From Patescibacteria group bacterium (GTDB taxonomy: Bacteria; Patescibacteriota; Minisyncoccia; Phycocordibacterales; UBA9973), in the NCBI GenBank assembly GCA_028865035.1, contig JAGWLB010000001.1, positions 99,668 to 163,667 of the forward strand: DNA of 64,000 nt, in the 5' to 3' direction. Positions within the stretch are counted from its first letter, which is position 1. Every line of letters begins with the position of its first letter. Positions 2,751-56,334 of the stretch are shown here, in pieces. The translations under genes and the position numbers were made by a program. Under the pieces are notes generated by a model that was not told where the DNA came from, ran no database searches, and saw only the letters and a program-made list of their open reading frames with translations.

Positions 2751-3542
2751 ATGCATATGAAAGTCCCTATACTTTTCGAAGATAAGAATATATTAGTGTT
2801 GAATAAACCAGCTGGGCTTGCTGTGCATGCAGATGCTAAAAGTACTGACGAAGAAACAATTTCTGATTTTATAATTGCACACGATAAATCAATTGCTAAA
2901 GTCGGTGAACCAATGATGATAGAGTACAAAGGGGAAAAAGTAAAAATAATACGCCCAGGTATTGTTCATCGTCTAGACAAAGAAACATCAGGAGTATTAC
3001 TAGTAGCAAAGAACCAAAAAACTTTTGAATTGTTAAAAGAGCAATTTCAAAATCATACAATTAAAAAAGTTTACAGAGCTTTTGTTTATGGACCAGTTAC
3101 TGACCCAAAAGCTTCACTTGCCACTGGTAAAAGAGGAATCATAAACGTACCCATTGGTCGTAGTCCAAAAGATATTCGTATGTGGACTGCAGGACGCGGA
3201 GCAAGGCCACCTTTGAGGGAAGCAGTGACAGAATATATTATTCTTAATAAATTCAGCGATATAGTGAATAGTAAATCAACAGTAGAACATCAGTTTACAT
3301 ACATAGAGGCATATCCAAAAACTGGTAGAACTCATCAGATTCGTGTACATATGCGTTATATAAATCACCCCGTTGTTTCAGATCCACTTTATAGAGGGTC
3401 AAAAGATATGGCTCTAGGTATGAAACGACTTGCTCTTCACGCCTTTTCAATAACCTTTCGTTTACCAAATGGAGATACTAAAACAGTTGAAGCTCCATTA
3501 CCTCCCGATTTTAAAAAAGTAATAAAGACATATATACAATAA
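2751..3542 (+). CDS. RluA-family pseudouridine synthase
   Basis: Motifs ILVLNKPAGLAVH and GIVHRLDKETSGVLLVAK (catalytic Asp motif HRLD). Confidence 0.85.
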   Translation: MHMKVPILFEDKNILVLNKPAGLAVHADAKSTDEETISDFIIAHDKSIAKVGEPMMIEYKGEKVKIIRPGIVHRLDKETSGVLLVAKNQKTFELLKEQFQNHTIKKVYRAFVYGPVTDPKASLATGKRGIINVPIGRSPKDIRMWTAGRGARPPLREAVTEYIILNKFSDIVNSKSTVEHQFTYIEAYPKTGRTHQIRVHMRYINHPVVSDPLYRGSKDMALGMKRLALHAFSITFRLPNGDTKTVEAPLPPDFKKVIKTYIQ

Positions 3543-7896: not shown

Positions 7897-7969
7897 GGTG
7901 CCTATAGTGTAATGGTTAGCACTAGAGTTTGTGGAACTCTCAGTCTGGGTTCAAATCCCAGTAGGCACC
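7897..7969 (+). tRNA. tRNA-His (anticodon GTG) with encoded G-1
   Basis: G-1 then acceptor GTGCCTA/TAGGCAC, discriminator C, anticodon stem AGAGT/ACTCT with loop TTGTGGA, T arm CTGGG-TTCAAAT-CCCAG. Confidence 0.85.
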
Positions 7970-21878: not shown

Positions 21879-24212
21879 ATGCCTTCAAAAAAAAGAGTTG
21901 TAAGTACAAAAAAAGTCGACACTAAAAAAGTTTCCTCGCAAACTACAAAAATTTCTAACAAGAATTATTTTATTAAAAGCATTCAAAAAAGAGATGGTAC
22001 AAATGTTCCTTTTGACATCGAAAAGATAGTTAATGCTATTAATAAAGCAATGCTTGCAGCGAATGAAGGGTCTATCAAAGAAGCAGAAGCTGTCGCTAAG
22101 AAAGTTTTGGCTGAAATTGAATTTTTCGCCAAGAAAAATAAGGATTTTATCCCTACAGTTGAGATTATTCAAGATACTGTAGAGAAGCATTTAATGCTCT
22201 CCGACTATGTTAAGACATCGAAGAACTACATTCTTTTCCGAGAAGAAAGAGCTCGCTTACGTTCTCATGGTGTTTCTGTTCCTGAGCACGTAAAAAAGTT
22301 AACCGATGAAAGTAAAAAATATTTTAGAAACCCACTTTCTGAATTTGTTTATTATCGAACTTACGCCAAATGGATTGAAGAAGAGGGTAGAAGAGAAACT
22401 TGGATAGAGACAGTTGATCGTTATATAAATTTTATGAAAGGGAAGCTTGGAAATACTTTGAAAGATTCTGAATACAAAGAAGTGCGTGAAGCTATCTTAA
22501 AACAAGAAGCAATGCCTTCAATGCGTCTAATGCAATTTGCAGGTGCAGCTGCAGAGAAAACAAATGTCTGCGCTTATAACTGTTCTTTTGTTGCTCCATC
22601 ATCGTTTCAAGATTTTGGCGACATAGTTTATATCTCAATGTGTGGCACAGGAGTTGGTTTCTCTGTTGAAAGTAAGAATATACAATCTCTTCCTCAAATA
22701 AAAATTCAAAATGGTAAAAAAATACCTACTTATGTAGTGCCTGATACCAAAGAAGGCTGGGCAGACGCTTTGGTTTTTGGTATGAAGACTTGGTTTGATG
22801 GCAACGATGTGGATTTTGATTTCTCTCTACTTCGTCCTGCAGGAGCAAGACTTAAAATAATGGGTGGTAAAAGTTCAGGTCCTCAACCACTGATAGATTT
22901 GTTAGGTTTTACTAGAGAGCGTATTTTACGTCGTCAAGGAAGGCACTTAAGGAATATCGATGCTCATGACATTATATGTAAAATAGGTGAATGTGTCGTT
23001 TCGGGTGGTGTTCGCCGAAGCGCCCTTATTTCACTGTCTGATTTAGATGACCAAGATATGCGTGATGCTAAAAACGGCCAATTCTGGCTTAACGAAGGTC
23101 AAAGAATGCTTGCTAATAATTCAGCTGTTTATAATACCAAGCCAACTGAAACTGAATTTTTGAAAGAATGGATTTCTCTTATGGAATCAGGAACTGGAGA
23201 AAGAGGAATCTTTAATCGTGGGTCACTATATAACTCATTGCCAAAGCGACGCTTAGAGGTATCAAAGAATTATATTGGTGAAATGGGTACTAATCCTTGT
23301 GGAGAAATAATTTTACGATCAAGGCAATTCTGTAACCTTTCTGAAGTAGTTGCTCGTACAGATGATACCGAGGAGTCTCTTATGAGAAAAATCCGAGTTG
23401 CAACTATCCTTGGTACTTACCAGTCTACTCTTACAAAATTAGGTTATCTTTCTAAAGCTTGGAAAGATAATTGCGAAGAAGAACGCTTGCTAGGCGTATC
23501 TATTACTGGTCAATGGGATTCAAAAGTTGCTCGCGATCCAGATGTTCTAAAGAGATTAAAGAATGAAACAATTCGTCTTAACAAGATTTACGCCAAGAAG
23601 TTCGGCATAAACGAATCAACTTGTATTACTTGTATTAAACCATCAGGTACTGTTTCTCAAACTGTCGATTGTGCTTCGGGTATGCATCCTCGTCACGCTC
23701 CTTACTATATACGCCGAGTTCGTATCTCAGCCAATGATGCTCTATTTAAAATGCTAAAAGATCAAGGAGTACCATTCCACCCAGAAGTAGGACAGACTCT
23801 TGAGAATGCTACTACCTTTGTTCTCGAGTTTCCTATGAAGTCACCAGAAGGAGCAATTTGTAAAGACGATATATCTGCTATTGAGCAATTAGAACACTGG
23901 AAAATAGTGAAAGTAAATTACACTGAACATAATCCATCAGTAACTGTCTCGGTAGGTGAGAATGAATGGATACAAGTAGCACATTGGTTATATCAAAATT
24001 GGGATATTGTCGGAGGCCTTTCTTTCTTGCCTAGGAATAATCATATCTACCAACTAGCTCCATATGAAACAATCGATGAGAAAAAATACAATGAATTAAT
24101 GAAAAAAATGCCAGATTTTGATTTCTCAAAAATTATTAAATACGAAATCAAAGACGAGACTGAAGTTAAAAGAGAGCTTGCCTGTGTTGCCGGAGTTTGT
24201 GATATAGTTTAA
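21879..24212 (+). CDS. nrdJ: Class II (adenosylcobalamin-dependent) ribonucleotide reductase with an N-terminal ATP-cone
   Basis: ATP-cone (IQKRDGTNVPFDIEKIVNAINKA); NPCGEIILRSRQFCNLSEV active-site region; C-terminal CVAGVCDIV redox cysteines. Confidence 0.8.
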   Translation: MPSKKRVVSTKKVDTKKVSSQTTKISNKNYFIKSIQKRDGTNVPFDIEKIVNAINKAMLAANEGSIKEAEAVAKKVLAEIEFFAKKNKDFIPTVEIIQDTVEKHLMLSDYVKTSKNYILFREERARLRSHGVSVPEHVKKLTDESKKYFRNPLSEFVYYRTYAKWIEEEGRRETWIETVDRYINFMKGKLGNTLKDSEYKEVREAILKQEAMPSMRLMQFAGAAAEKTNVCAYNCSFVAPSSFQDFGDIVYISMCGTGVGFSVESKNIQSLPQIKIQNGKKIPTYVVPDTKEGWADALVFGMKTWFDGNDVDFDFSLLRPAGARLKIMGGKSSGPQPLIDLLGFTRERILRRQGRHLRNIDAHDIICKIGECVVSGGVRRSALISLSDLDDQDMRDAKNGQFWLNEGQRMLANNSAVYNTKPTETEFLKEWISLMESGTGERGIFNRGSLYNSLPKRRLEVSKNYIGEMGTNPCGEIILRSRQFCNLSEVVARTDDTEESLMRKIRVATILGTYQSTLTKLGYLSKAWKDNCEEERLLGVSITGQWDSKVARDPDVLKRLKNETIRLNKIYAKKFGINESTCITCIKPSGTVSQTVDCASGMHPRHAPYYIRRVRISANDALFKMLKDQGVPFHPEVGQTLENATTFVLEFPMKSPEGAICKDDISAIEQLEHWKIVKVNYTEHNPSVTVSVGENEWIQVAHWLYQNWDIVGGLSFLPRNNHIYQLAPYETIDEKKYNELMKKMPDFDFSKIIKYEIKDETEVKRELACVAGVCDIV

Positions 24213-24223
24213 TCTATAAATAT

Positions 24224-24745
24224 ATGAAAAAAAATTGGTTTAAATATACATTTACTTTTATAATGGTTCTTGCTCTGCGATTAATACCGTTTCGTACTCC
24301 AAACGTCGAACCGATAATGGCTGCTCAAATGCCATTCGGTAAGGTTTATGGTAAATTATCCGCTTTCCTATTTGGGGCGCTTAGTATCGTTGTCTATGAT
24401 AGTTTAACTTCAGGTATAGGTATGTGGACAGTAATTACAGCGTTAGCTTATGGATTAGTTGGTTTAGGGGCGGGTGTTTACTTCAAGAACAGAGGGGGTT
24501 GGAAGAGCTATGCTACTTACGCCGTAATTGCTACGATTCTTTATGATGCTGCAACCGGCTTAACTCTAGGTCCATTATTTTTCGGTCAATCATTGAGCGG
24601 TGCTTTAATAGGACAGATTCCATTCACAGCTCTTCACTTGCTTGGCAACGTTTCATTTGCTATTATACTTTCACCAGTAATAGAAACGTGGTCAGCAAAG
24701 AAAAGAGAAGTTGCTGTTCAAGTTTTAAACCCAGTAGTGTTGTAG
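24224..24745 (+). CDS. Small 5-6-TM membrane protein, possibly an ECF-transporter S-component-like substrate-capture protein
   Basis: 173 aa, Gly-rich TM helices; function inferred only from its position between the B12-dependent RNR and the B12-binding-type genes. Confidence 0.25.
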   Translation: MKKNWFKYTFTFIMVLALRLIPFRTPNVEPIMAAQMPFGKVYGKLSAFLFGALSIVVYDSLTSGIGMWTVITALAYGLVGLGAGVYFKNRGGWKSYATYAVIATILYDAATGLTLGPLFFGQSLSGALIGQIPFTALHLLGNVSFAIILSPVIETWSAKKREVAVQVLNPVVL

Positions 24746-24774
24746 TGTTTCTTTAAAATTTAAACCCATTATAT

Positions 24775-24942
24775 TTGGAAGTGAGGTTCTTGATTTATTA
24801 AATCAAAATTCCTCCACTGTGCCGCAACGGTAATGCCTTATGAAAAGGACAAGTCCGATCTTAATATAGTGATGTATCCCGAGCAGGAGATAGATGCTTT
24901 TATGCATTTACTTTAACTTCTGTCTTGGCAGAAGTTTTTTTG
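24775..24942 (+). promoter_or_regulatory. Candidate cobalamin riboswitch: aptamer about 24775-24900 plus an intrinsic terminator expression platform at 24915-24942, upstream of the DUF4430 gene
   Basis: GGAAgtgaGGTTc[hairpin]AAATTCC tccACtGtGCCGCAACGGTAA matches the conserved core GGGAAnnnGGUGnAAnUCC nnnRCnGnCCCGCAACUGUAA. GAAAAGGAC is GGAAAGGUG-like. CAGGAGA is a partial B12 box. A terminator hairpin lies 20 nt before the ATG. Confidence 0.4.
24915..24942 (+). terminator. Intrinsic terminator hairpin (AACTTCTG-TCTTGG-CAGAAGTT plus T7) 170 nt after the previous stop and 20 nt before the next start; likely a riboswitch attenuator
   Basis: 8-bp stem followed by a T-run. Confidence 0.6.
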
Positions 24943-24961
24943 TTATTAATTTTATTTTATT

Positions 24962-25483
24962 ATGAAAAATAGAAAATATATTTATCTTATAGTTTTATCC
25001 TTATGTCTTTTAGCAATAAGCTTATTTTTACATAATAATTCTCATAAAAAAATACAAACTAAGTTAGCTAGTGTACCAAAATCAGAATCTGTATTACCTG
25101 TAAAAACATCATCAAACGAAACACAGAAAATTGTAAATGAAAATATTCCTAAAGTTACATCTGAAACTCAAACCACACAAGCGTTAAAAAATACAGAAGT
25201 TACTCTTAGCGTATTAGGTAATACATATACTACAAATCTAAAGAACGGAGCAACGGTCTATGATGCAATGCTTAGTATTGAAAATACCAAAGATGATAAT
25301 TTCTCATTTGTAGCTAATAATTATTCAGGTCTAGGTTATTTTGTAGATGAGATTGATGGAGTCAAAGGTTCTCCAGGTAAATATTGGATTTATTATGTTA
25401 ATAATAAGAAAGCATCTGTCGGTGTTTCAAAATATATTCTCAAATCAGGAGATGTAATAAATTGGAAACAAGAAGGTATGTAA
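24962..25483 (+). CDS. Signal-anchored DUF4430-type protein (transcobalamin-like beta-domain; predicted cobalamin-binding)
   Basis: C-terminal ~90 aa ATVYDAML...YSGLGYFVDEIDGVKGSPGKYWIYYVNNKKASVGVSKYILKSGDVINW fits the DUF4430 pattern (G.FV..I.G....YWMYYVNG....GA....L.DGD.I.W). Confidence 0.55.
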   Translation: MKNRKYIYLIVLSLCLLAISLFLHNNSHKKIQTKLASVPKSESVLPVKTSSNETQKIVNENIPKVTSETQTTQALKNTEVTLSVLGNTYTTNLKNGATVYDAMLSIENTKDDNFSFVANNYSGLGYFVDEIDGVKGSPGKYWIYYVNNKKASVGVSKYILKSGDVINWKQEGM

Positions 25484-25490
25484 AATAATT

Positions 25491-28196
25491 ATGAAAAAAA
25501 ATACATTTAAAAAATTAATCGTTTTATCCATTTTTAGCTTTATATTACTCGGGCAAAATTTTGTATTTGCTAGCACTACTACTGATACACAACCATCAAC
25601 ACCTGTAGTTACCGACACCACCGCTCCAGTCATCACTCTTGTGGGAAATGCAAATGTTACTATCAACGTCGGTGATACTTATAAAGATGCAGGAGCAACA
25701 GCATTAGACGATACTGATGGAGACATAACATCGTCTATTGTCACAAAAAATAATGTTGATACAACAAAAGCTGGAACTTATACTGTTACTTACGATGTAA
25801 AAGACAAGGCGGGGAATAGTGCTACTACTGTGATTCGTAATGTTAACGTCGTTAATATTCCAACATTAAAAAGTATTGCAATAACTACTCCTGCTACAAA
25901 ACTATCTTTTGTAATTGGTGATCCACTTAATATTGATGGATTGGTAGTGACAGGAACATATGATGACGGTAGTGCTAAGGTTGAAACTATCACAACTAAT
26001 AACATTACTGGTTTTGATAGTTCAAAAATCGCTACCAATCAAGTTTTAACCATTACTATTGGGGGAGAAACAACAACGTATGCAGTGAATATTATTCCAG
26101 CTCCGGTGACTATCAATTTAAAGATTTATGCGGGGAATACTGTGCTATTCGATGGACCTGAGACGGTTACAGCATGCGTAGAATCACCTGCAGTTGATGC
26201 TCCTATTACAGTGAACGGTAAATGTGCCATAGAACAATCCAAATTATCAAATACTTGGACATGGAAATATTCACCAAGTGGATGGTTAGATGAACTCGGT
26301 GGCTATACAACAACTTCTGACTTCTCAAAATACTGGAGCTGGTTTAATAATCTTACACCAGGCACAACTGGTCTTAACCAACACTTACTTTCTACCGGAG
26401 AGGAACTTCTTCTAACTTACAATTCTTACCCACTTCGTATATCAGCCTCAAAAAATTCTGGAGCAATAGGGGATACAGTAGTGTTTACAGCTGAAGAAGA
26501 AAGTACTTTTGATTCAAACTATAATCTGGTTTGGACAAAATCAAAAGGAGTGACTGTTACATTAGGAACTCAATCTTGCGCAACTATCGCTGATGGGACT
26601 TGTTCAATTATTTTAAATACATCTGGTTCACTAAACGCAATCGGGACTAAAGATTTATATGTCCCGACTGACCCTGTTAAAATAGAAGTTTCAAATGCTG
26701 ACACCACCGCTCCAGTCATCACTCTTGTGGGAAATGTAAATGTTACTATCAATGTCGGTGATACTTATAAAGATGCAGGATCAACAGCATTAGACGATAC
26801 TGATGGAGACATAACATCGTCTATTGTCACAAAAAATAATGTTGATACCACAAAAGCTGGAACTTATACTGTTACTTACGATGTGAAAGACAAGGCGGGG
26901 AATAGTGCTAAAGAAGTGGTACGATCTGTAACCACTATAAATCCTGTAATAAGTAGTGGTGGCGGTGGAGTAATCGTTGTATCAAAATCATTCTCTATCC
27001 CAAATGCAATTTCTTTCCTTGCCAAGAATGAAAAGCCAGATGGTTCATTCGGTAACATCCTTTATACTGACTGGGTAGCTTTAGCTGTTGCGACGTCACC
27101 AGAAGGAGCAAGTATTAAATCAAAAGTCTCAGATTTCTTAAAAAATAACCCTCTGACTTCAACTATAGCAACCGATAACGAACGTCATGCTATGGCACTT
27201 ATGTCTCTTGGTATTAATCCATATTCTGGAACAAGCGTAGACTATATTAAGAAAATTACTGATAGTTTTGATGGCACACAGATAGGTGATAGTACTCTGC
27301 TCAATGATGATATTTTTGCTTTAATTGTCCTTTCAAAAGCTGGATACACTAGCAGCGATAGTATTATCTCAAAAGATGTAAATTATTTAATTTCTAAACA
27401 GTCACCAGATGGTTCATGGAGTGATACTGATTTAACTTCAGCTGCTGTTCAAGCATTAAATAATTTTAAAGATATAGACGGAGTGCAGTCTTCTGTCTCA
27501 AATGCTTTAAATTATTTGTCAAAAGCCCAAGGGTCTGATGGTGGGTTTGGGAACTCATTTTCTACTAGCTGGGCGCTGCAAGCTTTTTCTACAAATACTT
27601 CTGCTTATAACTCAGAAATTGTTAAAGCAGACAAATATCTAGCATTACAGCAGCAAAGTGATGGTGGAGTTGATGACGTTACTAATCTTGTGGATAGCCG
27701 TGTTTGGTCTACCTCATATGCCATACCAGCAGCCCTTCATTTGTCATGGAATAATATTTTACAGTCTTTTAGTAAGCCTGTAGTAACATCACAAGTATTC
27801 AGTGGGAATATTTCATCGACTATCAGTAATAACAGTATGCCAATTGTCAGTACATCTATTATACCTGCTAGCGTTAATACACCTTTACCTGTTGCAAATA
27901 ATATTAAAACTGATAGTAATACTCCAATAGCATCTAAAGAAAAAACAAATAATAATAGTGTTATTAAAGTTTCTCCAGAAAAACCGATCATAATATCTAA
28001 AATAACAAAAATTGCAATTAAAAAACCAACCAATCTTATAATTGCAAAACAACCCGTAAAAGATAATAATACAGCCCTTACGGCAAGTGCTGCTAATGCT
28101 TCTTCTTCTGAAAGTTTACCTTATAGAGTTATAAAAAATATTATCTATACTATCGAAGCTCCCTTTATATGGCTTTTCGTACACTTAGGATTTTGA
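25491..28196 (+). CDS. 901-aa surface protein: signal peptide, two DUF5011-like Ig domains, central prenyltransferase/terpene-cyclase-like alpha-alpha toroid repeats, Ser/Thr-rich stalk, C-terminal hydrophobic anchor
   Basis: Ig: DAGATALDDTDGDITSSIVTKNNVDTTKAGTYTVTYDVKDKAGNSA, present twice. Toroid repeats: DGSFGNILYTDWVALAV, DGSWSDTDLTSAAVQAL, DGGFGNSFSTSWALQAF, DGGVDD... Confidence 0.55.
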   Translation: MKKNTFKKLIVLSIFSFILLGQNFVFASTTTDTQPSTPVVTDTTAPVITLVGNANVTINVGDTYKDAGATALDDTDGDITSSIVTKNNVDTTKAGTYTVTYDVKDKAGNSATTVIRNVNVVNIPTLKSIAITTPATKLSFVIGDPLNIDGLVVTGTYDDGSAKVETITTNNITGFDSSKIATNQVLTITIGGETTTYAVNIIPAPVTINLKIYAGNTVLFDGPETVTACVESPAVDAPITVNGKCAIEQSKLSNTWTWKYSPSGWLDELGGYTTTSDFSKYWSWFNNLTPGTTGLNQHLLSTGEELLLTYNSYPLRISASKNSGAIGDTVVFTAEEESTFDSNYNLVWTKSKGVTVTLGTQSCATIADGTCSIILNTSGSLNAIGTKDLYVPTDPVKIEVSNADTTAPVITLVGNVNVTINVGDTYKDAGSTALDDTDGDITSSIVTKNNVDTTKAGTYTVTYDVKDKAGNSAKEVVRSVTTINPVISSGGGGVIVVSKSFSIPNAISFLAKNEKPDGSFGNILYTDWVALAVATSPEGASIKSKVSDFLKNNPLTSTIATDNERHAMALMSLGINPYSGTSVDYIKKITDSFDGTQIGDSTLLNDDIFALIVLSKAGYTSSDSIISKDVNYLISKQSPDGSWSDTDLTSAAVQALNNFKDIDGVQSSVSNALNYLSKAQGSDGGFGNSFSTSWALQAFSTNTSAYNSEIVKADKYLALQQQSDGGVDDVTNLVDSRVWSTSYAIPAALHLSWNNILQSFSKPVVTSQVFSGNISSTISNNSMPIVSTSIIPASVNTPLPVANNIKTDSNTPIASKEKTNNNSVIKVSPEKPIIISKITKIAIKKPTNLIIAKQPVKDNNTALTASAANASSSESLPYRVIKNIIYTIEAPFIWLFVHLGF
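25611..25850 (+). repeat. Intragenic near-identical ~235-bp duplication, copy 1 (encodes DUF5011-like domain 1)
   Basis: About 98% identical to 26700-26935; the differences are C>T, G>T, A>C, A>G. Confidence 0.8.
26700..26935 (+). repeat. Intragenic near-identical ~235-bp duplication, copy 2
   Basis: See copy 1. Confidence 0.8.
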
Positions 28197-28209
28197 TATA
28201 ATATGGGCT

Positions 28210-28773
28210 ATGAAAACAAAATTTATAATCTTTGTAATTGCCGTTATTTTGCTCATTGGTGGTCTAGGTTTTTTAGTCAACAAGAGCCAAGGTCCTGGAA
28301 AGTTAGATGATTTTGCAAAAGCTCTCAAGTCTAACGACGCTGTATTTTATGGCGCTTTTTGGTGTCCACATTGTATGGAACAAAAAACATTATTTAGTAA
28401 TTCAAAAAAATATTTGCCTTATGTTGAATGTTCTAACCCTGATCAATCAATGAATAAAACTTGTACAGATGCAAAAGTTGAAAGTTATCCTACTTGGATG
28501 TTCAAAGATGGCATAACTATTACATCAAAAGATAATCCTACTGTATGTCAGGTAAAACCTGGAGTTGCAGGTGAACCAGCTATATGTGCTCAAGTCTCGT
28601 CGCAGTATTATAAAACGTGGCTTTTCCCAGGATATCAATTCTCTATAAAAAGCCCCACCGATCCAGTGAAAACTGGTGATGTTTGGAAATTTGAAAAAGG
28701 AGCTCAGACTCAAGGGGTGCTACCGCTTGAATTCTTAGCTCAAGAGATAGGTTATACCAATCTACCAAAATAA
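28210..28773 (+). CDS. Membrane-anchored thioredoxin-fold thiol:disulfide oxidoreductase (DsbA/BdbD-like)
   Basis: FYGAFWCPHCMEQK CxxC motif after an N-terminal TM helix. Confidence 0.65.
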   Translation: MKTKFIIFVIAVILLIGGLGFLVNKSQGPGKLDDFAKALKSNDAVFYGAFWCPHCMEQKTLFSNSKKYLPYVECSNPDQSMNKTCTDAKVESYPTWMFKDGITITSKDNPTVCQVKPGVAGEPAICAQVSSQYYKTWLFPGYQFSIKSPTDPVKTGDVWKFEKGAQTQGVLPLEFLAQEIGYTNLPK

Positions 28774-28774
28774 T

Positions 28775-29320
28775 ATGCCCGCATACATTGAAACATTTAA
28801 TCAAATTCTTTCACTAGGAACGATATTTCTACAAATTATTGTTTTGATTATAGTTATAAATTTGATTTTTTTCCGTACCAAAGAAAATCCTATTCTTATC
28901 TCTTTTAAAAAATATACTTTTTACTTAGGTTTCATTATTGCCTTAGGTGGAGTTGCTCTGAGTCTTTTTTATTCGCAAGTGATAGGTTTTCCTCCCTGTG
29001 AGCTTTGTTGGATAGAACGTATATTCATATACCCACAAGCTATCTTGTTTGGTATGGAGCTATACAAGCGCGATCAGACTATGGTGGATTTCAGTATTGC
29101 TCTTGCTATCTTCGGGTCATTTGTATCTTTGTATCATATATATATAGAGCACGGAGGATCTTCTTCTCTTGCTTGCGCTGTCGGTGGTAGCGCTTCAGTA
29201 TCGTGTGCTACTTTATATGTTTATGAATTCACATATGTCACCATACCTGTAATGGCTCTAACAGTTTCTGTATTTATTTTGTCACTACTTATAAATTATA
29301 AATATATATCAAAGAAATAA
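28775..29320 (+). CDS. Disulfide bond formation protein B (DsbB/BdbC family)
   Basis: PPCELCWIERIFIYPQAIL parallels BdbC PCELCWYQRI; 4 TM helices; second Cys pair CAVGGSASVSC. Confidence 0.65.
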   Translation: MPAYIETFNQILSLGTIFLQIIVLIIVINLIFFRTKENPILISFKKYTFYLGFIIALGGVALSLFYSQVIGFPPCELCWIERIFIYPQAILFGMELYKRDQTMVDFSIALAIFGSFVSLYHIYIEHGGSSSLACAVGGSASVSCATLYVYEFTYVTIPVMALTVSVFILSLLINYKYISKK

Positions 29321-29395: not shown

Positions 29396-31153
29396 ATGCA
29401 TCTCGATGAGAAAAGTATCATAGATCTATTAAATAGTTCAGGGCTAGTCAGTAAAACTGATGTAGCTATGGCTCAAAAGAAAGCTAAAGAAAAAGGTCAA
29501 TCTATTGGCCTAGTTTTAGTTAGTGAAGGTAAGCTTACAGAAAAAGATTGGAACAGTATGCAAGCCGTTTCACTAGGTATTCCATTTGTTAGCTTGAAGG
29601 GTGAGAAGATTGATCCTAGTGTCCTATCTCTGATACCAGAACCGATTGCTCGTAACAGTAATATAATTGCTTATAAAAAAAGCAAAGCAGGCCTAGAAGT
29701 TGCGATGCTCGACGTAGATAATTTATCGGTTATAGATTTTATAAAGAAAAAAGTTGGGCTTAAGATTTTACCGCGCCTAACAAGCTCAGATTCAATAAAG
29801 GAAGCCTTAACACAATACAAGAAAAGTTTGCAAGCTGACTTTGAAGATATCATCAAAAAAGAAAGCGCTTCGATAAAAACTATTTTAAAAAATGATAACT
29901 CTAGTGAAGAAAAGTCAGAAAAAGAACTTAAAGAATTAGCAGAAGATTTACCAATAGTAAAGATAGTAGATACTCTTATCTCTCATGCCATTTCTCAAGG
30001 AGCATCTGATGTACATATAGAGCCTGAAGAGGATTCACTAATTGTTCGTTATCGCATTGATGGTATTTTGCACGATGCGATGGTTTTACCCAAAGACACT
30101 GCACCAGGAATAGTGGCTCGTATAAAAGTTTTGTCAAATCTAAAATTAGACGAAAAACGTCTCCCTCAAGACGGACGTTTCAAAATTGAAGGAGAAGACG
30201 GTAATGTATCATTTCGTGTTTCGACTCTGCCTACGTATTATGGAGAAAAAACAGTGATACGTATTTTAAGAGAAAACTCTAAAGGTTTTTCCCTAGAGAC
30301 TCTAGGCTTTCACGGTAATGCACTAGAACTTATACATGAAGGTATGAAGCAAAGAAGTGGTATGTTGCTTTGTGCGGGTCCTACGGGTTCGGGTAAAACT
30401 ACAACTTTGTATACAATGCTCGATATTTTAAATACTCCAGAAGTAAATATTTCCACTGTTGAAGACCCTATAGAATATCAAATGGCACGTATAAACCAAA
30501 CACAAACAAAAGCAGAAATAGGTTTAACTTTTGCAAATGGTTTGCGTACACTGCTTCGTCAAGATCCGGATATTATAATGGTAGGGGAGATTCGTGACGG
30601 GGAGACAGCTTCACTTGCAGTCAACGCTAGTCTTACTGGCCACTTAGTACTATCAACCATCCACACGAATTCCGCTGCTGGAGCTATTCCCCGTATGATA
30701 GATATGGGAGTCGAACCATTTTTAATTGTTTCTACAGTTAAAACCATTATTGCTCAGCGCTTAGTTAGAATTCTTGATGATAATAAGGAAAAATATTTCT
30801 TAGACGATGCTGAAAAAAAAGCTCTAGAAAAAGTTGCAAATCTCGATCTTGTTCTTGAAAGATTGAAAAGTGAAAAGATTGTTGATCCAAATGCTACTTG
30901 GAAAACTATACCATTATACAAACCTGTAACAAGTAAAGAATCAGAGAGTGGTTATAAAGGACGGTTAGGTATTCACGAAGTTTTAAAAGTTACACCGACT
31001 CTTAAAGATATGATTCTAAAAGGATCATCAACGGATGAGATTGAAGCCAGAGCAAAAGAAGAGGGTATGATGACAATGCTCGAAGATGGTATTTTCTTTG
31101 CCTGCAAGGGTTTGACTTCGACAGAAGAGGTTCTTCGTGTTGTTTCTGAATAA
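29396..31153 (+). CDS. pilB: Type IV pilus assembly ATPase PilB (GspE family)
   Basis: N-terminal GSPII_E_N-like domain; Walker A LLCAGPTGSGKTTTLY; GspE His box. Confidence 0.85.
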   Translation: MHLDEKSIIDLLNSSGLVSKTDVAMAQKKAKEKGQSIGLVLVSEGKLTEKDWNSMQAVSLGIPFVSLKGEKIDPSVLSLIPEPIARNSNIIAYKKSKAGLEVAMLDVDNLSVIDFIKKKVGLKILPRLTSSDSIKEALTQYKKSLQADFEDIIKKESASIKTILKNDNSSEEKSEKELKELAEDLPIVKIVDTLISHAISQGASDVHIEPEEDSLIVRYRIDGILHDAMVLPKDTAPGIVARIKVLSNLKLDEKRLPQDGRFKIEGEDGNVSFRVSTLPTYYGEKTVIRILRENSKGFSLETLGFHGNALELIHEGMKQRSGMLLCAGPTGSGKTTTLYTMLDILNTPEVNISTVEDPIEYQMARINQTQTKAEIGLTFANGLRTLLRQDPDIIMVGEIRDGETASLAVNASLTGHLVLSTIHTNSAAGAIPRMIDMGVEPFLIVSTVKTIIAQRLVRILDDNKEKYFLDDAEKKALEKVANLDLVLERLKSEKIVDPNATWKTIPLYKPVTSKESESGYKGRLGIHEVLKVTPTLKDMILKGSSTDEIEARAKEEGMMTMLEDGIFFACKGLTSTEEVLRVVSE

Positions 31154-31177: not shown

Positions 31178-32392
31178 ATGAAATTTAAATACAAAGTACA
31201 AAAAAATGGTGGCGGGGTTCTTGAAGGTTATAAAGAAGCCCCAGATAAGTTTTCACTAGCTCGTGATCTAAGAGAGCAAGGTGATACTCCTATATATATT
31301 GAGGAATCTGGAACTAAAGAAAAAACCTCCATTTTAAAAATGAATTTTTTTGGAAGGGTTTCACTCTCAGAGAAAATAATATTTACAAACAATTTGAGTG
31401 GAATGCTAACTGCAGGTTTGCCGCTCACAAGAGCATTGTTAGTTCTTCAAAAACAAAACAAAAATCAGACTTTTAATAAAATTCTGAATAGCCTTATAGA
31501 TGATATTAATAGTGGAAATACTCTATCAGATGGTATGAGTAAGTATCCGAAGGTATTCTCTAGTCTTTTTGTTTCTATGGTTCATGCAGGTGAAGAATCA
31601 GGAAGTTTACCAAAATCTTTATCAGAAGTCGGTCTTAATTTAAAGAAGGCATATGATTTGAGTAAAAAGGTTAAAAGTGCATTAATCTACCCAGTAATAA
31701 TTCTCTGCGCAATTATTTTGATTGGTGTTTTAATGATGATCTTCGTTGTCCCTACTCTTACTAAAACATTCAAAGATATGGGAGCTGATTTACCAGCTTC
31801 AACTAAATTCATTATTTGGTTGTCAGATACTGTTAGTAACCATACAATATTATTTTTATTATTCTTACTATCGATTGCTGCCGCTATCATTCTATTTGTA
31901 AAGTTACGGGCAACACAAAAATATCTTGATTATTTGATCTTACGAGTACCTGTTGTAAATAATATATCTAAGGAAGTGAATACCGCCCGCACCGCTCGCA
32001 CGTTATCCTCACTGCTATCATCAGGAGTAGATATGTCTAGAGCTTTGACCATCACAAAAGAAGTTGTGCAAAATATTTATTACAAAAAATTAATTTCACA
32101 AGCCATTACTTCCATAGAAAAAGGTAGCCCTCTGTCTGCTTCCTTTAAAGACAATACACAACTTTATCCTGTTATGATGGGAGAAATGATCGAAGTAGGC
32201 GAAGAAACAGGTAATCTATCTAAAATGTTATTAGATATCGCTAACTTCTATGAATCCGAAGTTGATAATAAAACAAAAGACTTATCGGTTATTATCGAGC
32301 CAGTCTTAATGCTTTTAATAGGCGGAGCCGTCGGATTTTTTGCTGTATCTATGATTTCCCCGATATACTCTGTGATGAGTAATATTAAATAG
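31178..32392 (+). CDS. pilC: Type IV pilus platform protein PilC (GspF family)
   Basis: Two T2SS-F repeats, 3 TM helices, ~400 aa, directly after pilB. Confidence 0.8.
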   Translation: MKFKYKVQKNGGGVLEGYKEAPDKFSLARDLREQGDTPIYIEESGTKEKTSILKMNFFGRVSLSEKIIFTNNLSGMLTAGLPLTRALLVLQKQNKNQTFNKILNSLIDDINSGNTLSDGMSKYPKVFSSLFVSMVHAGEESGSLPKSLSEVGLNLKKAYDLSKKVKSALIYPVIILCAIILIGVLMMIFVVPTLTKTFKDMGADLPASTKFIIWLSDTVSNHTILFLLFLLSIAAAIILFVKLRATQKYLDYLILRVPVVNNISKEVNTARTARTLSSLLSSGVDMSRALTITKEVVQNIYYKKLISQAITSIEKGSPLSASFKDNTQLYPVMMGEMIEVGEETGNLSKMLLDIANFYESEVDNKTKDLSVIIEPVLMLLIGGAVGFFAVSMISPIYSVMSNIK

Positions 32393-41669: not shown

Positions 41670-42962
41670 ATGAGTAAAAAGGAAATTAGTATAATAATTT
41701 TATTGATAATTATTGCACTCGTGAGATTTTTCTTTTTCTTACCGAAAGCTCCACCTTACGCAAGTGCAGTAGGGAAAAATATAATTTTTGAGGGCATAGT
41801 TGTTGATCCTCCAGATGTGCGTTTGAATAATCAGAGGCTTACAGTTGAACCCAAAAATCAAAAAGCGAATGTTTTAGTTGTAGTTCCCCGAACAGAAGAA
41901 GTGTCGTATGGAGATAAAATACAAGTCAGTGGAATATTAGAAACGCCAGAAAATTTCACCACCTCCACCGGTAAAGAATTTAATTATATGAGATATCTAG
42001 CAAATCAAGATATCTACTTTACTGTAAAAAATGCACAGATTAAAATAATATCTCATAATAATGGAAACAAGCTGAAAGCTATATTATTTAAGTTACGGGA
42101 TTTGTTCACAAATAATATTAATAATGTTATAGACCCCCCAGAAAGTGATCTGGCTTTAGGGTTAGTCATAGGTGCTCGCGGAGGTTTTGATTCTGGTATA
42201 AAGAATGAATTTATCAGCACAGGTACGATTCATATTGTTGCATTGTCTGGATATAACGTGACTGTTGTCGCAGAAGGTGTTATGAAAGTTTTCGGTTTGA
42301 TTCTTGCCCAGACATTTTCAATTATTTTTGGGATACTAATTATTTTTTTGTTTATTATAATGGCCGGCTCTTCTTCTACAGCAATCAGGGCGGGGGTTAT
42401 GGCTACTATTGCACTATTTGCTCGTATGACTGGTCGTACATATTCTGCTGGTAGAGCTCTTGTGATCGCAGGGTTGATAATGGTTGCATACGATCCTCGT
42501 GTACTCTCCGATATATCTTTTCAGTTATCTTTTATAGCAACCTTTGGTGTATTATTCTTAACACCGAAAGTTATGATTTGGGTTAGATTTTTACCACTGC
42601 GTTTTGGTTTGCGTGAGCTTGTGGCCACAACTCTCGGAGCCACTATCGCTGTGCTTCCTATTCTTCTTTATGTTACCGGAGTTCTTTCTATCGTGTCACT
42701 GCCAGCAAATATTTTAATTTTACCTTTTATACCGCTAACAATGTTAATGATTTTTATTACTGGTGTGATTGGATTTATCTCCCCAACATTCTCTTTACCA
42801 TTTGCTTATCTATCACATTTATTACTTGCATATATTTTATCGGTTATTCACTTCTTTGCTTCACTATCATTTGCTAGTGTAACTATTACATCATTCCCAT
42901 TAATTATCACTATTATCATATATATCACTATGGTCTGGTGGTTATTACGCAAAAAAGAATAA
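41670..42962 (+). CDS. comEC: ComEC/Rec2 N-terminal part: DUF4131 OB-fold plus the competence membrane-channel domain
   Basis: OB region GKNIIFEGIVVD...; IHIVALSGYNVTVV competence-domain motif; polytopic. Confidence 0.7.
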   Translation: MSKKEISIIILLIIIALVRFFFFLPKAPPYASAVGKNIIFEGIVVDPPDVRLNNQRLTVEPKNQKANVLVVVPRTEEVSYGDKIQVSGILETPENFTTSTGKEFNYMRYLANQDIYFTVKNAQIKIISHNNGNKLKAILFKLRDLFTNNINNVIDPPESDLALGLVIGARGGFDSGIKNEFISTGTIHIVALSGYNVTVVAEGVMKVFGLILAQTFSIIFGILIIFLFIIMAGSSSTAIRAGVMATIALFARMTGRTYSAGRALVIAGLIMVAYDPRVLSDISFQLSFIATFGVLFLTPKVMIWVRFLPLRFGLRELVATTLGATIAVLPILLYVTGVLSIVSLPANILILPFIPLTMLMIFITGVIGFISPTFSLPFAYLSHLLLAYILSVIHFFASLSFASVTITSFPLIITIIIYITMVWWLLRKKE

Positions 42963-42965
42963 AAA

Positions 42966-43000
42966 TAATCCTAGATATATATCTAGGATTATTTTTATTT
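42966..43000. terminator. Bidirectional terminator: perfect 14-bp palindrome AATAATCCTAGATAT/ATATCTAGGATTATT
   Basis: Between convergent comEC and sodA; flanked by A and T runs. Confidence 0.65.
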
Positions 43001-54124: not shown

Positions 54125-56266
54125 ATGGAAAGAGATTATCCTTTAGAGAAAGTTAGAAATTTTGGAATTATTGCCCACATTGATGCAGGTAAGACTACAA
54201 CTACCGAGCGTGTTCTTTACTATACTGGTGTGTCACACAAGATAGGTGAAGTTCACGATGGTGAGACTACGACAGACTGGATGGAGCAAGAAAAAGAGCG
54301 TGGCATCACTATTACTTCAGCTGCAGTAACTTGTTTCTGGACACCTACATATGCTCTCGCAGATAAAAATAAAAAAAATCGTTTTAATATTATTGACACC
54401 CCTGGTCACATCGACTTTACGGTAGAAGTAAAAAGATCACTTCGTGTTCTTGATGGCGCTGTGGTTGTATTTGATGGTGTTGCTGGTGTAGAACCACAAT
54501 CAGAGACGAACTGGCGCTATGCCGATGAAGCTCAAGTTCCTCGTATATGTTTTATCAACAAACTTGATCGTACAGGTGCTTCTTTTGAGCATTCATATAA
54601 AACTATTCTTGACCGTTTAAATAAAAATGCTGTTCGTATGCAGATACCTATTGGGTTGGAAGAGAACCACGAAGGAGTTATCGATCTGCTTCGTATGAAA
54701 GCTTACTATTTTGAAGGTACTATGGGTAACTTAGTCGTTGAAAAAGACATACCTGAGAATCTATTAGCTGATGCAGAAAAGTATCATGCTGAGCTTATTG
54801 AGAAAATCGTTGAACAAGATGATCAAGTGATGAGTGATTACTTAGAAGGTAAGACTCCAGACTTAGATACACTAAAGAAGCTAATGCGTAAAGCTGTTAT
54901 TGCGAATAAGCTTTTCCCGGTTTTTGCTGGTAGTGCTCTGAAGAACAAAGGTGTACAGCTTGTACTTGATGCAGTTGTTGATTATCTTCCAAGTCCTCTC
55001 GATATTCCTGCTATTCAAGGTATAAATCCTGATACAGATGAAGTTATGGAGCGTCATGCATCTGACAGCGAACCATTCTCTGCATTAGCATTTAAAGTTG
55101 CTACCGATCCATTCGTTGGCCAAATAATATTCTTCCGTGTGTACTCTGGTACTGTTTCTGCTGGAAGTTATGTTTACAACCCTCGTACTCGTAACAAAGA
55201 ACGCATTGGACGTATTTTAAGAATGCATGCCAACGAACGTGAAGAAGTGAAGAAAGTTTATGCTGGAGAAATAGCTGCCGCAGTAGGTCTAAAAGATACT
55301 GTAACTTCAGATACTCTTTGTGATGAAGAGCATCCTATTGAGTTGTATCGTATTGTTTTCCCTGAACCAGTTATCTCTCTTCGCATCGAACCAAAAACAA
55401 AAGCTGATCAAGAAAAAATGGGTATGGCACTTTCTCGTCTTGTGCAAGAAGATCCTACTTTTCGTGTTACTACTGACCCAGAAACAAATGAGACAATCAT
55501 CGCAGGAATGGGCGAACTACATCTTGAAATCATTGTTGATCGTCTAAAGCGTGAGTTTGCTGTAGAAGCAAATGTCGGTAATCCACAAGTTGCTTATCGT
55601 GAGACTATTACTGGTACATCAAGTGTTGAAGGTAAATACATCAAACAGTCAGGAGGTAGAGGTAACTATGGTCACGTTAAGATCAAAGTTAAACCTATGG
55701 ATCTGTCTGTGAAAGAAGAAGATCTTCCAAAGAATACCAAACGCGAAAAAGGTTTTGAATTTATCAATACTATTAAAGGTGGAGCTATTCCTCAGGAGTA
55801 TATTCCAGCTTGTGAAAAAGGATTTAAAGAAGGTCTCGACAGGGGAGTATTAGCTGGATTCAAGCTTGTGAATGTATCGGTTGAGTTATGGGATGGTTCA
55901 TTCCACGATGTGGACTCAAATGAAATGGCTTTCAAGATAGCGTCTTCTATGGCAGTTCAGGATGCTTGTAAAATAGCAAAGCCAGTTATCTTAGAGCCAA
56001 TGATGAATGTTGAAGTTGTTACTCCAGACAAATTTATGGGTGATGTCACTGGTAGTCTTTCATCAAAGCGTGGTCTTATAGAAGGTATGGAAGATCGCGG
56101 TATGAATCAAGTAGTTAAAGCCATCGTTCCTTTATCTGAAATGTTCGGGTATATGACCACTCTCCGTTCTATGACTGAGGGCCGAGCTGGTTTCACAATG
56201 GAATTCTTGCGTTACGATATTGTTCCACAGAACGTCGCTACTGCTATCATTGAATCTCGCAAATAA
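54125..56266 (+). CDS. fusA: Elongation factor G
   Basis: [32 protein letters not shown]; ~713 aa. Confidence 0.95.
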
Positions 56267-56281
56267 CATTATAAATAAAAT

Positions 56282-56313
56282 AACCTCAGACTTAGTCTGA
56301 GGTTATTTTATTT
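56282..56313 (+). terminator. Rho-independent terminator after fusA
   Basis: AACCTCAGAC-TTA-GTCTGAGGTT followed by ATTTTATTT. Confidence 0.75.
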
Positions 56314-56334
56314 ATATATAATTTAATATACAAT

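Follow-up and report, generated by a model that had tools for sequence, protein, structure and literature searches.

The 64,000-nucleotide stretch of DNA analysed here (the window) comes from contig JAGWLB010000001.1, positions 99,668 to 163,667 of the forward strand, of a Patescibacteria group bacterium (assembly GCA_028865035.1). Positions 24764 to 24942 (+), directly ahead of a gene for a DUF4430 protein, very probably constitute a compact, Cbl-II-like corrinoid riboswitch that represses the DUF4430 operon through transcription termination, a reading drawn from the sequence of the window and of its relatives. The element is an ordinary member of a known riboswitch class, and its terminator platform is of known type. 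A first-pass annotation of the same DNA had proposed a candidate cobalamin riboswitch with a terminator-type expression platform at this site. The aptamer assignment is upheld by covariance-model matches, syntenic relatives above Rfam thresholds and covariation, and the platform by a hairpin and T run at 24915–24942 together with family-wide complementarity between terminator and antiterminator. The position ahead of the DUF4430 gene and the B12-related neighbourhood were likewise correctly recognised.

Covariance-model matches

At Rfam gathering thresholds, the 64-kb window contains no cobalamin family and three tRNAs only. With permissive filters, RF01482 (adenosylcobalamin, AdoCbl; clan CL00101) matches 24752–24902 (+) with 43.4 bits across model positions 1–149 of 149, at E = 5.5e-7 in a search of the 301-nt leader and E = 1.2e-4 in a search of the whole window with all 4227 Rfam families. 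This is the sole cobalamin-clan hit within the window, in a clan search that reports the best family per clan only and that retained RF01482 here. The alignment departs from the model at two places: a 23-nt stretch stands opposite the 6-nt P4 loop of the model, and the 3' hairpin is much shortened. The gathering score is an operational cut-off and not a biological feature.

A dedicated model, R1 (108 positions, 28 pairs), was built from 27 relatives of canonical length, with the window excluded. R1 gives a single hit on the window at 24764–24890, with 99.3 bits and E ~2e-23 over model positions 1–108 of 108, and the only irregularity in its alignment is a 22-nt insertion in L4. Unconstrained minimum free energy (MFE) folding of 24746–24965 yields the closing helix, P4 with an extension, P5, P6 and the terminator (z = −2.3). 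The first-pass annotation had named two observations that would speak against a riboswitch: the absence of an Rfam hit at the gathering threshold, which was indeed found, and a core unable to pair, which was not, as the P3–P6 pairings do form. It had placed the start of the element at 24775; the element itself is real, and the aptamer begins at 24764–24767, about 10 nt further upstream.

Relatives and synteny

DUF4430 homologs were found in 18 genome loci (L001–L018), nearly all of them in metagenome-assembled genomes of Patescibacteria, also termed the candidate phyla radiation (CPR). A cobalamin-clan match lies directly upstream of DUF4430 in 13 of the 16 genome loci with enough upstream DNA. 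Nine of these 13 score above gathering, six with RF01482 (51.9–69.0 bits) and three with RF00174 (34.3–40.0 bits; L009, L010 and L013). Matching a degenerate core pattern against metagenome contigs brought in at least 120 further loci. Among the listed loci with more than 500 nt of downstream sequence, 93 of 103 carry a DUF4430 homolog downstream on the same strand. Further downstream, the loci listed hold homologs of a 901-aa surface protein (52), a thioredoxin-like protein (20) and DsbB (16), and on the upstream side homologs of an S-component-like gene (39) and a ribonucleotide reductase (26). The exact DUF4430 protein of the window is encoded by no contig on record.

In the Microgenomates genome of locus L016, an RF01689 AdoCbl-II-like element at 2786–3000 (34.3 vs 36.5 bits) precedes the DUF4430 homolog; it has a translational platform and is flanked by two tRNA genes.

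Aptamer architecture and covariation

Four alignments were made. A1 comprises 13 protein-recruited sequences. A2, a MAFFT alignment of all 99 members, had P3 and P6 scrambled and was replaced by a structure-blind MAFFT seed (A3) and a covariance-model realignment (A4). The parts of the aptamer are as follows.

24764–24890 (+): cobalamin aptamer and P13/L13 regulatory hairpin; full-length R1 match, RF01482 at 24752–24902
24767–24774 (+): 5' strand of the closing helix (P3), CAUUAUAU, pairing with 24864–24871; model alignments, MFE fold
24775–24780 (+): J3/4, UUGGAA; invariant columns in A1, A2 and A3
G24781 and 24783–24786 with 24811–24815 (+): P4 stem; 99.6% of cells paired, four of five pairs compensatory
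24787–24810 (+): L4 T-loop, flanks GGU...AUUCC
24790–24806 (+): inserted hairpin UUGAUUU-AUU-AAAUCAA, 17 nt, between T-loop positions 3 and 4 of L4
24818–24826 (+): P5/L5, UGUGCCGCA; P5 pair U-A changed to A-U in six sequences
24828–24830 with 24855–24857 (+): base of P6, CGG/CCG; model alignments, MFE fold
24834–24839 with 24845–24851 (+): distal P6 hairpin; all five distal pairs covary
24851–24863 (+): B12 box and J6/3, AAGUCCGAUCUUA, aligned to the RF01482 consensus AAGUCAGGUCUUU
24864–24871 (+): 3' strand of the closing helix (P3), AUAUAGUG; model alignments, MFE fold, covariation
24877–24879 with 24886–24888 (+), loop 24880–24885: P13 (UCC/GGA) with L13 loop CGAGCA; covariation, resemblance to UCGAGGcA of RF01482 L13

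The four-way junction P3–P6 is present with its conserved core, consisting of GGAA in J3/4, GCCGCNAC around P5, and AGUCCG of the B12 box, which is (nearly) invariant across alignments A1–A3. Since the metagenome search pattern prescribed GGAA and GGU...AUUCC, their invariance is that of the 13 protein-recruited sequences of A1. CGAGCA, which the motif filter required of A2 and A3 members, also occurs in each of the 12 protein-recruited leaders.

P6 consists of one 30-nt hairpin (24828–24857) without a P7–P11 extension, and P6 lengths in the family are mostly 14–31 nt among the matches listed. Nothing lies between the −10-like box upstream and the closing helix, i.e. there is no P2 arm. Because P6 is short and both the P2 arm and the P7–P11 extension are absent, the predicted architecture is compact and Cbl-II-like, not Cbl-I. 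The family varies at its periphery: the distal P6 hairpin is wholly missing in L112, L113, L033 and L101, and in three loci an additional hairpin separates the closing helix from the true P13 block (L008, 2840–2871; L011, 2820–2860; L013, 2895–2930), with lowered Rfam scores.

The strings quoted in the first-pass annotation all stand in the window at their given positions. GGAAGTGAGGTTC occupies 24777–24789 and AAATTCC-TCC-ACTGTGCCGCAACGGTAA occupies 24806–24833, such that the core reads GGAA...GGU / AUUCC...ACUGUGCCGCAACGGUAA; the palindromic hairpin described as inserted in the core, TTGATTT-ATT-AAATCAA, lies between them at 24790–24806. Two other strings had been misassigned. GAAAAGGAC (24842–24850) had been presented as a conserved element, but it comprises just the loop, which is variable, and the 3' half of the distal P6 hairpin. 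CAGGAGA (24884–24890), taken for a partial B12 box, is the 3' part of L13/P13 and of the antiterminator strand, within an invariant block yCCCGAGCAGGA(G); the true box, AAGUCCGAUCUU, is placed at 24851–24862 by the RF01482 alignment.

In A4 (95 hits from 100 sources), 92.5% of the model-fitted positions form standard pairs, compared to 72.2% in shuffles (0/500 reach the observed value) and 38–53% with slid partners; 23 of 28 pairs are changed on both sides, with a covariation score of 0.51 vs 0.16. As A4 is fitted to the model, the count was repeated on the structure-blind A3. Here, 90.0% of positions are paired, compared to 81.8% in shuffles and 42–51% in slid controls, and 18 of 29 pairs are changed on both sides, compared to 10.3 in shuffles; none of 500 shuffles reaches the observed values, although the sequences are phylogenetically related, so that the shuffle statistics are inflated and are not probabilities. 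The covariation signal is consistent across P3, P4, distal P6 and P13. All nine pairs of the closing helix are changed on both sides within the family, and each of the three stem pairs of P13 covaries (UCC/GGA, CUC/AAG-type, UUC/GAA).

Predicted kissing loop and expression platform

Downstream of the aptamer core, the leader holds the features listed here, and a promoter-like hexamer precedes it.

24754–24759 (+): −10-like hexamer TAAAAT, putative promoter; predicted start at ~24765–24767, at the foot of the aptamer
24879–24889 (+): 5' strand of the antiterminator, CCGAGCAGGAG; overlaps L13 and the 3' side of P13, pairs with 24917–24928
24894–24965 (+): leader open reading frame (ORF) of 23 codons, MLLCIYFNFCLGRSFFVINFILL; starts 4 nt after the P13 GGAG, spans the terminator, ATGA overlap with the DUF4430 start
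24915–24936 (+), U tract to 24942: intrinsic terminator, nine-pair stem AACUUCUGU/GCAGAAGUU, loop CUUG; terminator scan, folds
24917–24928 (+): 3' strand of the antiterminator, formed by the terminator 5' arm and loop; duplex with 24879–24889

L5 is complementary to L13. UGCC of L5 (24820–24823) complements G.GCA within CGAGCA (24880–24885) through U24820·A24885, G24821·C24884, C24822·G24883 and C24823·G24881, with A24882 bulged, and 96.4% of family cells are paired at these positions. The usual pair is UGUGCC with CGAGCA; compensated variants are UGGGCC with CGAGCC (L016) and UGCCCC with CGAGGG (L062). An L5–L13 interaction is established in cobalamin riboswitches (PMC10327014, PMC7367189).

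At the DNA level, the terminator reads AACTTCTGT-CTTG-GCAGAAGTT (24915–24936), with three G-C pairs in the stem and a 4-nt loop, followed by TTTTTGTT. It is the only terminator-like site in 24200–25500 by consensus scan (shuffles mean 0.5). As first annotated, 20 nt separate the end of the T run from the ATG at 24962, and there are 170 nt between the upstream stop codon (24743–24745) and the terminator. A terminator occupies the equivalent place in 12 of 12 genome-derived leaders and in 94 of the 109 non-redundant family members listed. Pairing between the P13 block and the terminator 5' arm averages −9.9 kcal/mol, compared to −5.4 for shuffled arms and −4.4 for 3' arms (n = 94 listed, Wilcoxon p ~1e-14), and this complementarity is maintained though the terminator sequences differ between members.

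The antiterminator duplex of the window amounts to −10.2 kcal/mol, and folding of a nascent transcript that ends at 24928 gives this antiterminator as the MFE structure (−17.8 kcal/mol). In the full transcript, the terminator state with P13 enforced (−18.0 kcal/mol) and the antiterminator state (−19.1 kcal/mol) are nearly isoenergetic.

We postulate that, upon ligand binding, L5 would kiss L13 and hold the 3-bp P13 closed, allowing the terminator at 24915–24942 to form. The polymerase would then stop 20 nt before the DUF4430 ATG, which makes the element a predicted OFF switch. With no ligand bound, P13 would open and CCGAGCAGGAG would pair with 24917–24928, the segment engaging the terminator 5' arm also being given as CCCGAGCAGGAG; the resulting antiterminator would permit read-through. 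Binding of a corrinoid, the form of that corrinoid, and how strongly and in which direction expression is regulated in vivo are predictions of this scheme.

Transcription probably starts at the foot of the aptamer. A hexamer TAN[ACT]AT stands 20–26 nt upstream of GGAA in 56 of 103 listed members, compared to 6–13 in control offset windows, with the variants TAAAAT (30), TACAAT (16), TAGAAT (4) and TATAAT (3) among the members listed. The family loci showed neither a clear −35 box nor a clear extended −10.

Some relatives are arranged differently. In ~11 of the family members listed, the main ATG follows P13 directly, and AGGA would be the ribosome-binding site in a translational version of the switch; in L023, L049, L096, L103, L104, L129, L136 and L137, the DUF4430 start lies 0–7 nt after CCCGAGCAGGA(A/G). 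As the 3' strand of P13 would double there as a Shine-Dalgarno sequence, the subfamily appears to use both translational and transcriptional platforms.

Comparison with known systems

Among the described cobalamin riboswitches, RF01482 shares with the window the closing helix, GGAA in J3/4, P4, P5, a short P6 with internal loop, the B12 box and the 3' hairpin loop (CGAGCA vs UCGAGGcA), and close syntenic relatives of the window score 50.5–69 bits with this family, above threshold. In contrast to the model, with its ~12 paired positions, P13 of the window has 3 bp, and L4 of the window carries the 17-nt insertion (22–23 nt relative to the models). L5 reads UGCCG in the window compared to the UCCCG-type consensus quoted in PMC10327014.

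The Priestia megaterium metE corrinoid riboswitch resembles the window in its regulatory logic, as L5–L13 kissing stabilises P13 and the terminator forms, a logic demonstrated there by mutagenesis (PMC10327014). Its P13 is longer and contains an internal loop, and for the window the logic is predicted from complementarity and conservation only. The env8 Cbl-IIa riboswitch (RF01689; PDB 4FRN/4FRG; PMC6158498, PMC7367189) is likewise compact: its P6 is short, its L4 forms a T-loop onto which L6 docks in env8, and L5 kisses L13. The ribosome-binding site of env8 lies in P13, as would that of the ~11 listed family members described above, whose start codon stands right after P13. In contrast to env8, the window has a terminator platform, and a continuous closing helix replaces P1, the J1/3 T-loop and P3; the RF01689 family is a poorer match for the window than RF01482, the best of the clan. 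Cbl-I riboswitches (RF00174, e.g. E. coli btuB) have the same four-way-junction core and B12 box and follow the same kissing-loop principle, and L009, L010 and L013 match RF00174 best. However, Cbl-I elements have a P2 arm (L2A-P2-L2B) and a long P6 (P7–P11) according to PMC7367189, both of which the window lacks. Literature searches for cobalamin riboswitches of CPR/Patescibacteria retrieved none.

The L4 hairpin insertion

In the window, the L4 flanks GGU-UC...A-AUUCC are preserved around the 17-nt interruption of the T-loop. Insertions of 13–30 nt at this site occur in 13 of the 129 pattern matches listed, compared to 3 nt in the others; this is ~10% of the subfamily among the matches listed. 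Some classical cobalamin riboswitches have such insertions too, and the T-loop flanks are nearly always preserved. Of the 12 distinct insertions listed, 9 follow the layout GGU-N1N2-[hairpin]-N3-AUUCC, and the hairpin sequences are unrelated. Three of these 12 belong to classical GC-rich cobalamin riboswitches (L039, L100 and L124); therefore, the site is general to the class, and not confined to the Patescibacteria-associated subfamily. Given this recurrence at exactly the same site with unrelated sequences and mostly preserved T-loop flanks, the insertion looks like a tolerated, lineage-specific peripheral extension.

The insertion also bears on detection. Among members that lack it, 14 of 19 reach the Rfam gathering score (50.5–69 bits), compared to none of the nine members that carry it. 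Their scores are as follows.

Window: 43.4 bits
L015: 47.1 bits
L066: 40.9 bits
L037: 37.9 bits
L074: 29.8 bits (vs RF01689)
Remaining four: no hit at E ≤ 0.01

We attribute the sub-threshold score of the window to the 17-nt hairpin located inside the L4 T-loop. The insertion may not be the sole cause of a low score in every case; L031 and L042, which carry an insertion and give no hit, also have unusually long P6 regions. According to PMC6158498, the L4 T-loop is highly conserved and guides the global fold. A literature search for L4 insertions found none; the 2003 B12-element paper and a T-loop review were outside its coverage, so we claim neither precedent nor novelty.

Weighing the alternatives

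Several points weigh against a functional riboswitch. No Rfam family reaches its gathering score on the window (RF01482 43.4 vs 50), and a conserved folding module, the L4 T-loop, is interrupted (PMC6158498 for its conservation). P13 comprises only 3 base pairs, the kissing-loop covariation stems from two variant sequences only, the shuffle statistics carry the phylogenetic inflation described above, and the Patescibacteria-associated subfamily is known from sequence alone. The first two of these points would fit a decayed aptamer, in which the L4 insertion had disabled folding and left behind a constitutive terminator or attenuator, and the inserted hairpin of the window is indeed weak (−2.9 kcal/mol). 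However, no conserved core position is lost and each helix is intact (R1 99.3 bits), the antiterminator complementarity is retained, and the 12 distinct insertions listed share one site, are nearly all hairpin-capable (three weakly) and keep the flanks in 9 of 12 cases. We regard decay as very improbable. A chance resemblance, with the hairpin and T run merely terminating the upstream reductase and S-component-like genes, could draw on the AT-richness of the region, and the terminator could also halt upstream read-through. This explanation is effectively refuted by the R1 match (E ~2e-23), the covariation and the DUF4430 synteny in 93 of 103 listed loci; moreover, the terminator lies 170 nt past the upstream stop codon, with the −10-like box in between.

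A dual or translational mode of control deserves somewhat more credit, yet is still improbable. Here, GGAG (24886–24889) would serve as Shine-Dalgarno sequence for the leader ORF at 24894–24965, the riboswitch would control translation of the leader peptide, and DUF4430 would be translated by coupling. The ORF and its ATGA overlap exist, L113 has a short ORF with ATGA overlap, an ORF in L065 overlaps the main start by 14 nt, and AGGA of P13 is probably the ribosome-binding site in the ~11 listed members whose main ATG follows it. Coupling of B12 riboswitches to upstream ORFs has reportedly been observed in M. tuberculosis. However, an ORF reaches the main start in only 3 of the ~90 terminator-type members listed, the peptide is not conserved, and GGAG is paired in both the P13 and the antiterminator states. 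With the frame fixed, 27% of shuffled intervening sequences stay open to the ATGA. As only L113 and L065 are similar and shuffles stay open this often, the leader ORF is probably a product of chance. A compact corrinoid riboswitch acting through transcription termination remains by far the most probable reading of 24764–24942.

The probable regulated operon and its neighbourhood

The genes on either side of the riboswitch are listed below, with Pfam domain assignments for the downstream genes.

21879–24745: adenosylcobalamin-dependent, RTPR-like ribonucleotide reductase with N-terminal ATP-cone, and 173-aa energy-coupling factor (ECF) S-component-like membrane protein; directly upstream of the riboswitch
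24962–25483 (+): DUF4430 protein (Pfam PF14478, E = 4.7e-14)
25491–28196 (+): 901-aa surface protein with Ig-like domains and an alpha/alpha-toroid region (SQHop_cyclase_C)
28210–28773 (+): thioredoxin-like protein (Pfam)
28775–29320 (+): DsbB-like protein (Pfam)

The four ORFs within 24962–29320 are separated by gaps of 7, 13 and 1 nt, and they probably form the regulated operon as one transcription unit. Transcobalamins end in a C-terminal domain of the DUF4430 type (PMC4350170), and in L. rhamnosus a DUF4430 gene neighbours rtpR (PMC9963975). From its gene content, this is presumed to be a B12-capture operon, in which the DUF4430 and 901-aa proteins could form a split transcobalamin-like B12 binder. 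Repression of a B12-capture operon by B12 is a classic feedback arrangement. The 901-aa protein has a weak, sub-threshold Cobalamin_bind match (23.2 vs 25 bits). Against the sequences of solved structures, DUF4430 and the last 398 aa of the surface protein drew weak, unrelated hits and squalene-hopene cyclase repeats only. DUF4430 and 901-aa proteins co-occur downstream of the riboswitch in 52 of the loci listed. BtuH of Bacteroides was considered as a comparison for DUF4430 and dropped, since BtuH-type binders are DUF4465 proteins according to the literature.

On the upstream side, the reductase matches TIGR02505 with 286 bits, below the cut-off of 340, and the S-component-like protein has a weak PF07155 match. 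The window search found no cobalamin-clan RNA upstream of these two genes; therefore, riboswitch control seems to extend to the DUF4430 operon but not to the reductase or the putative transporter component. Past DsbB, type IV pilus/type II secretion genes follow, with a T2SSE ATPase (29396–31153) and a T2SSF platform protein (31178–32392). Elsewhere in the window, the three tRNA genes (RF00005, 63.8–69.2 bits) lie at 2453–2625 (−) and 7898–7969 (+). Weak sub-threshold Rfam matches at 56246–56325 and 42891–42997 (psRNA14, 33.5 bits; BSnc120, 26.2; Thr_leader, 27.4) are most likely due to chance, all being far under their gathering scores.

Implications

The understanding of how cobalamin riboswitches work is unchanged by this element. 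A more far-reaching proposal is that the L4 hairpin is a functional peripheral element and, separately, that DUF4430 and the surface protein together capture B12 as a split, transcobalamin-like system that is typical of Patescibacteria. We consider this proposal unlikely; if true, the insertion could change folding kinetics or corrinoid selectivity, and it would define a structural sub-variant systematically missed by current Rfam thresholds. As it stands, cobalamin riboswitches with an L4 hairpin fall below Rfam gathering scores (0/9 pass), an annotation blind spot through which B12 regulons are under-called. Furthermore, a conserved gene set, comprising DUF4430, the Ig-like/alpha-toroid surface protein, and the thioredoxin-like and DsbB-like proteins, and adjoining the reductase and S-component-like genes, is tied to corrinoid sensing, which offers a handle on otherwise unannotated genes. 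As a whole, these observations suggest that the host Patescibacteria scavenge B12 under feedback control.

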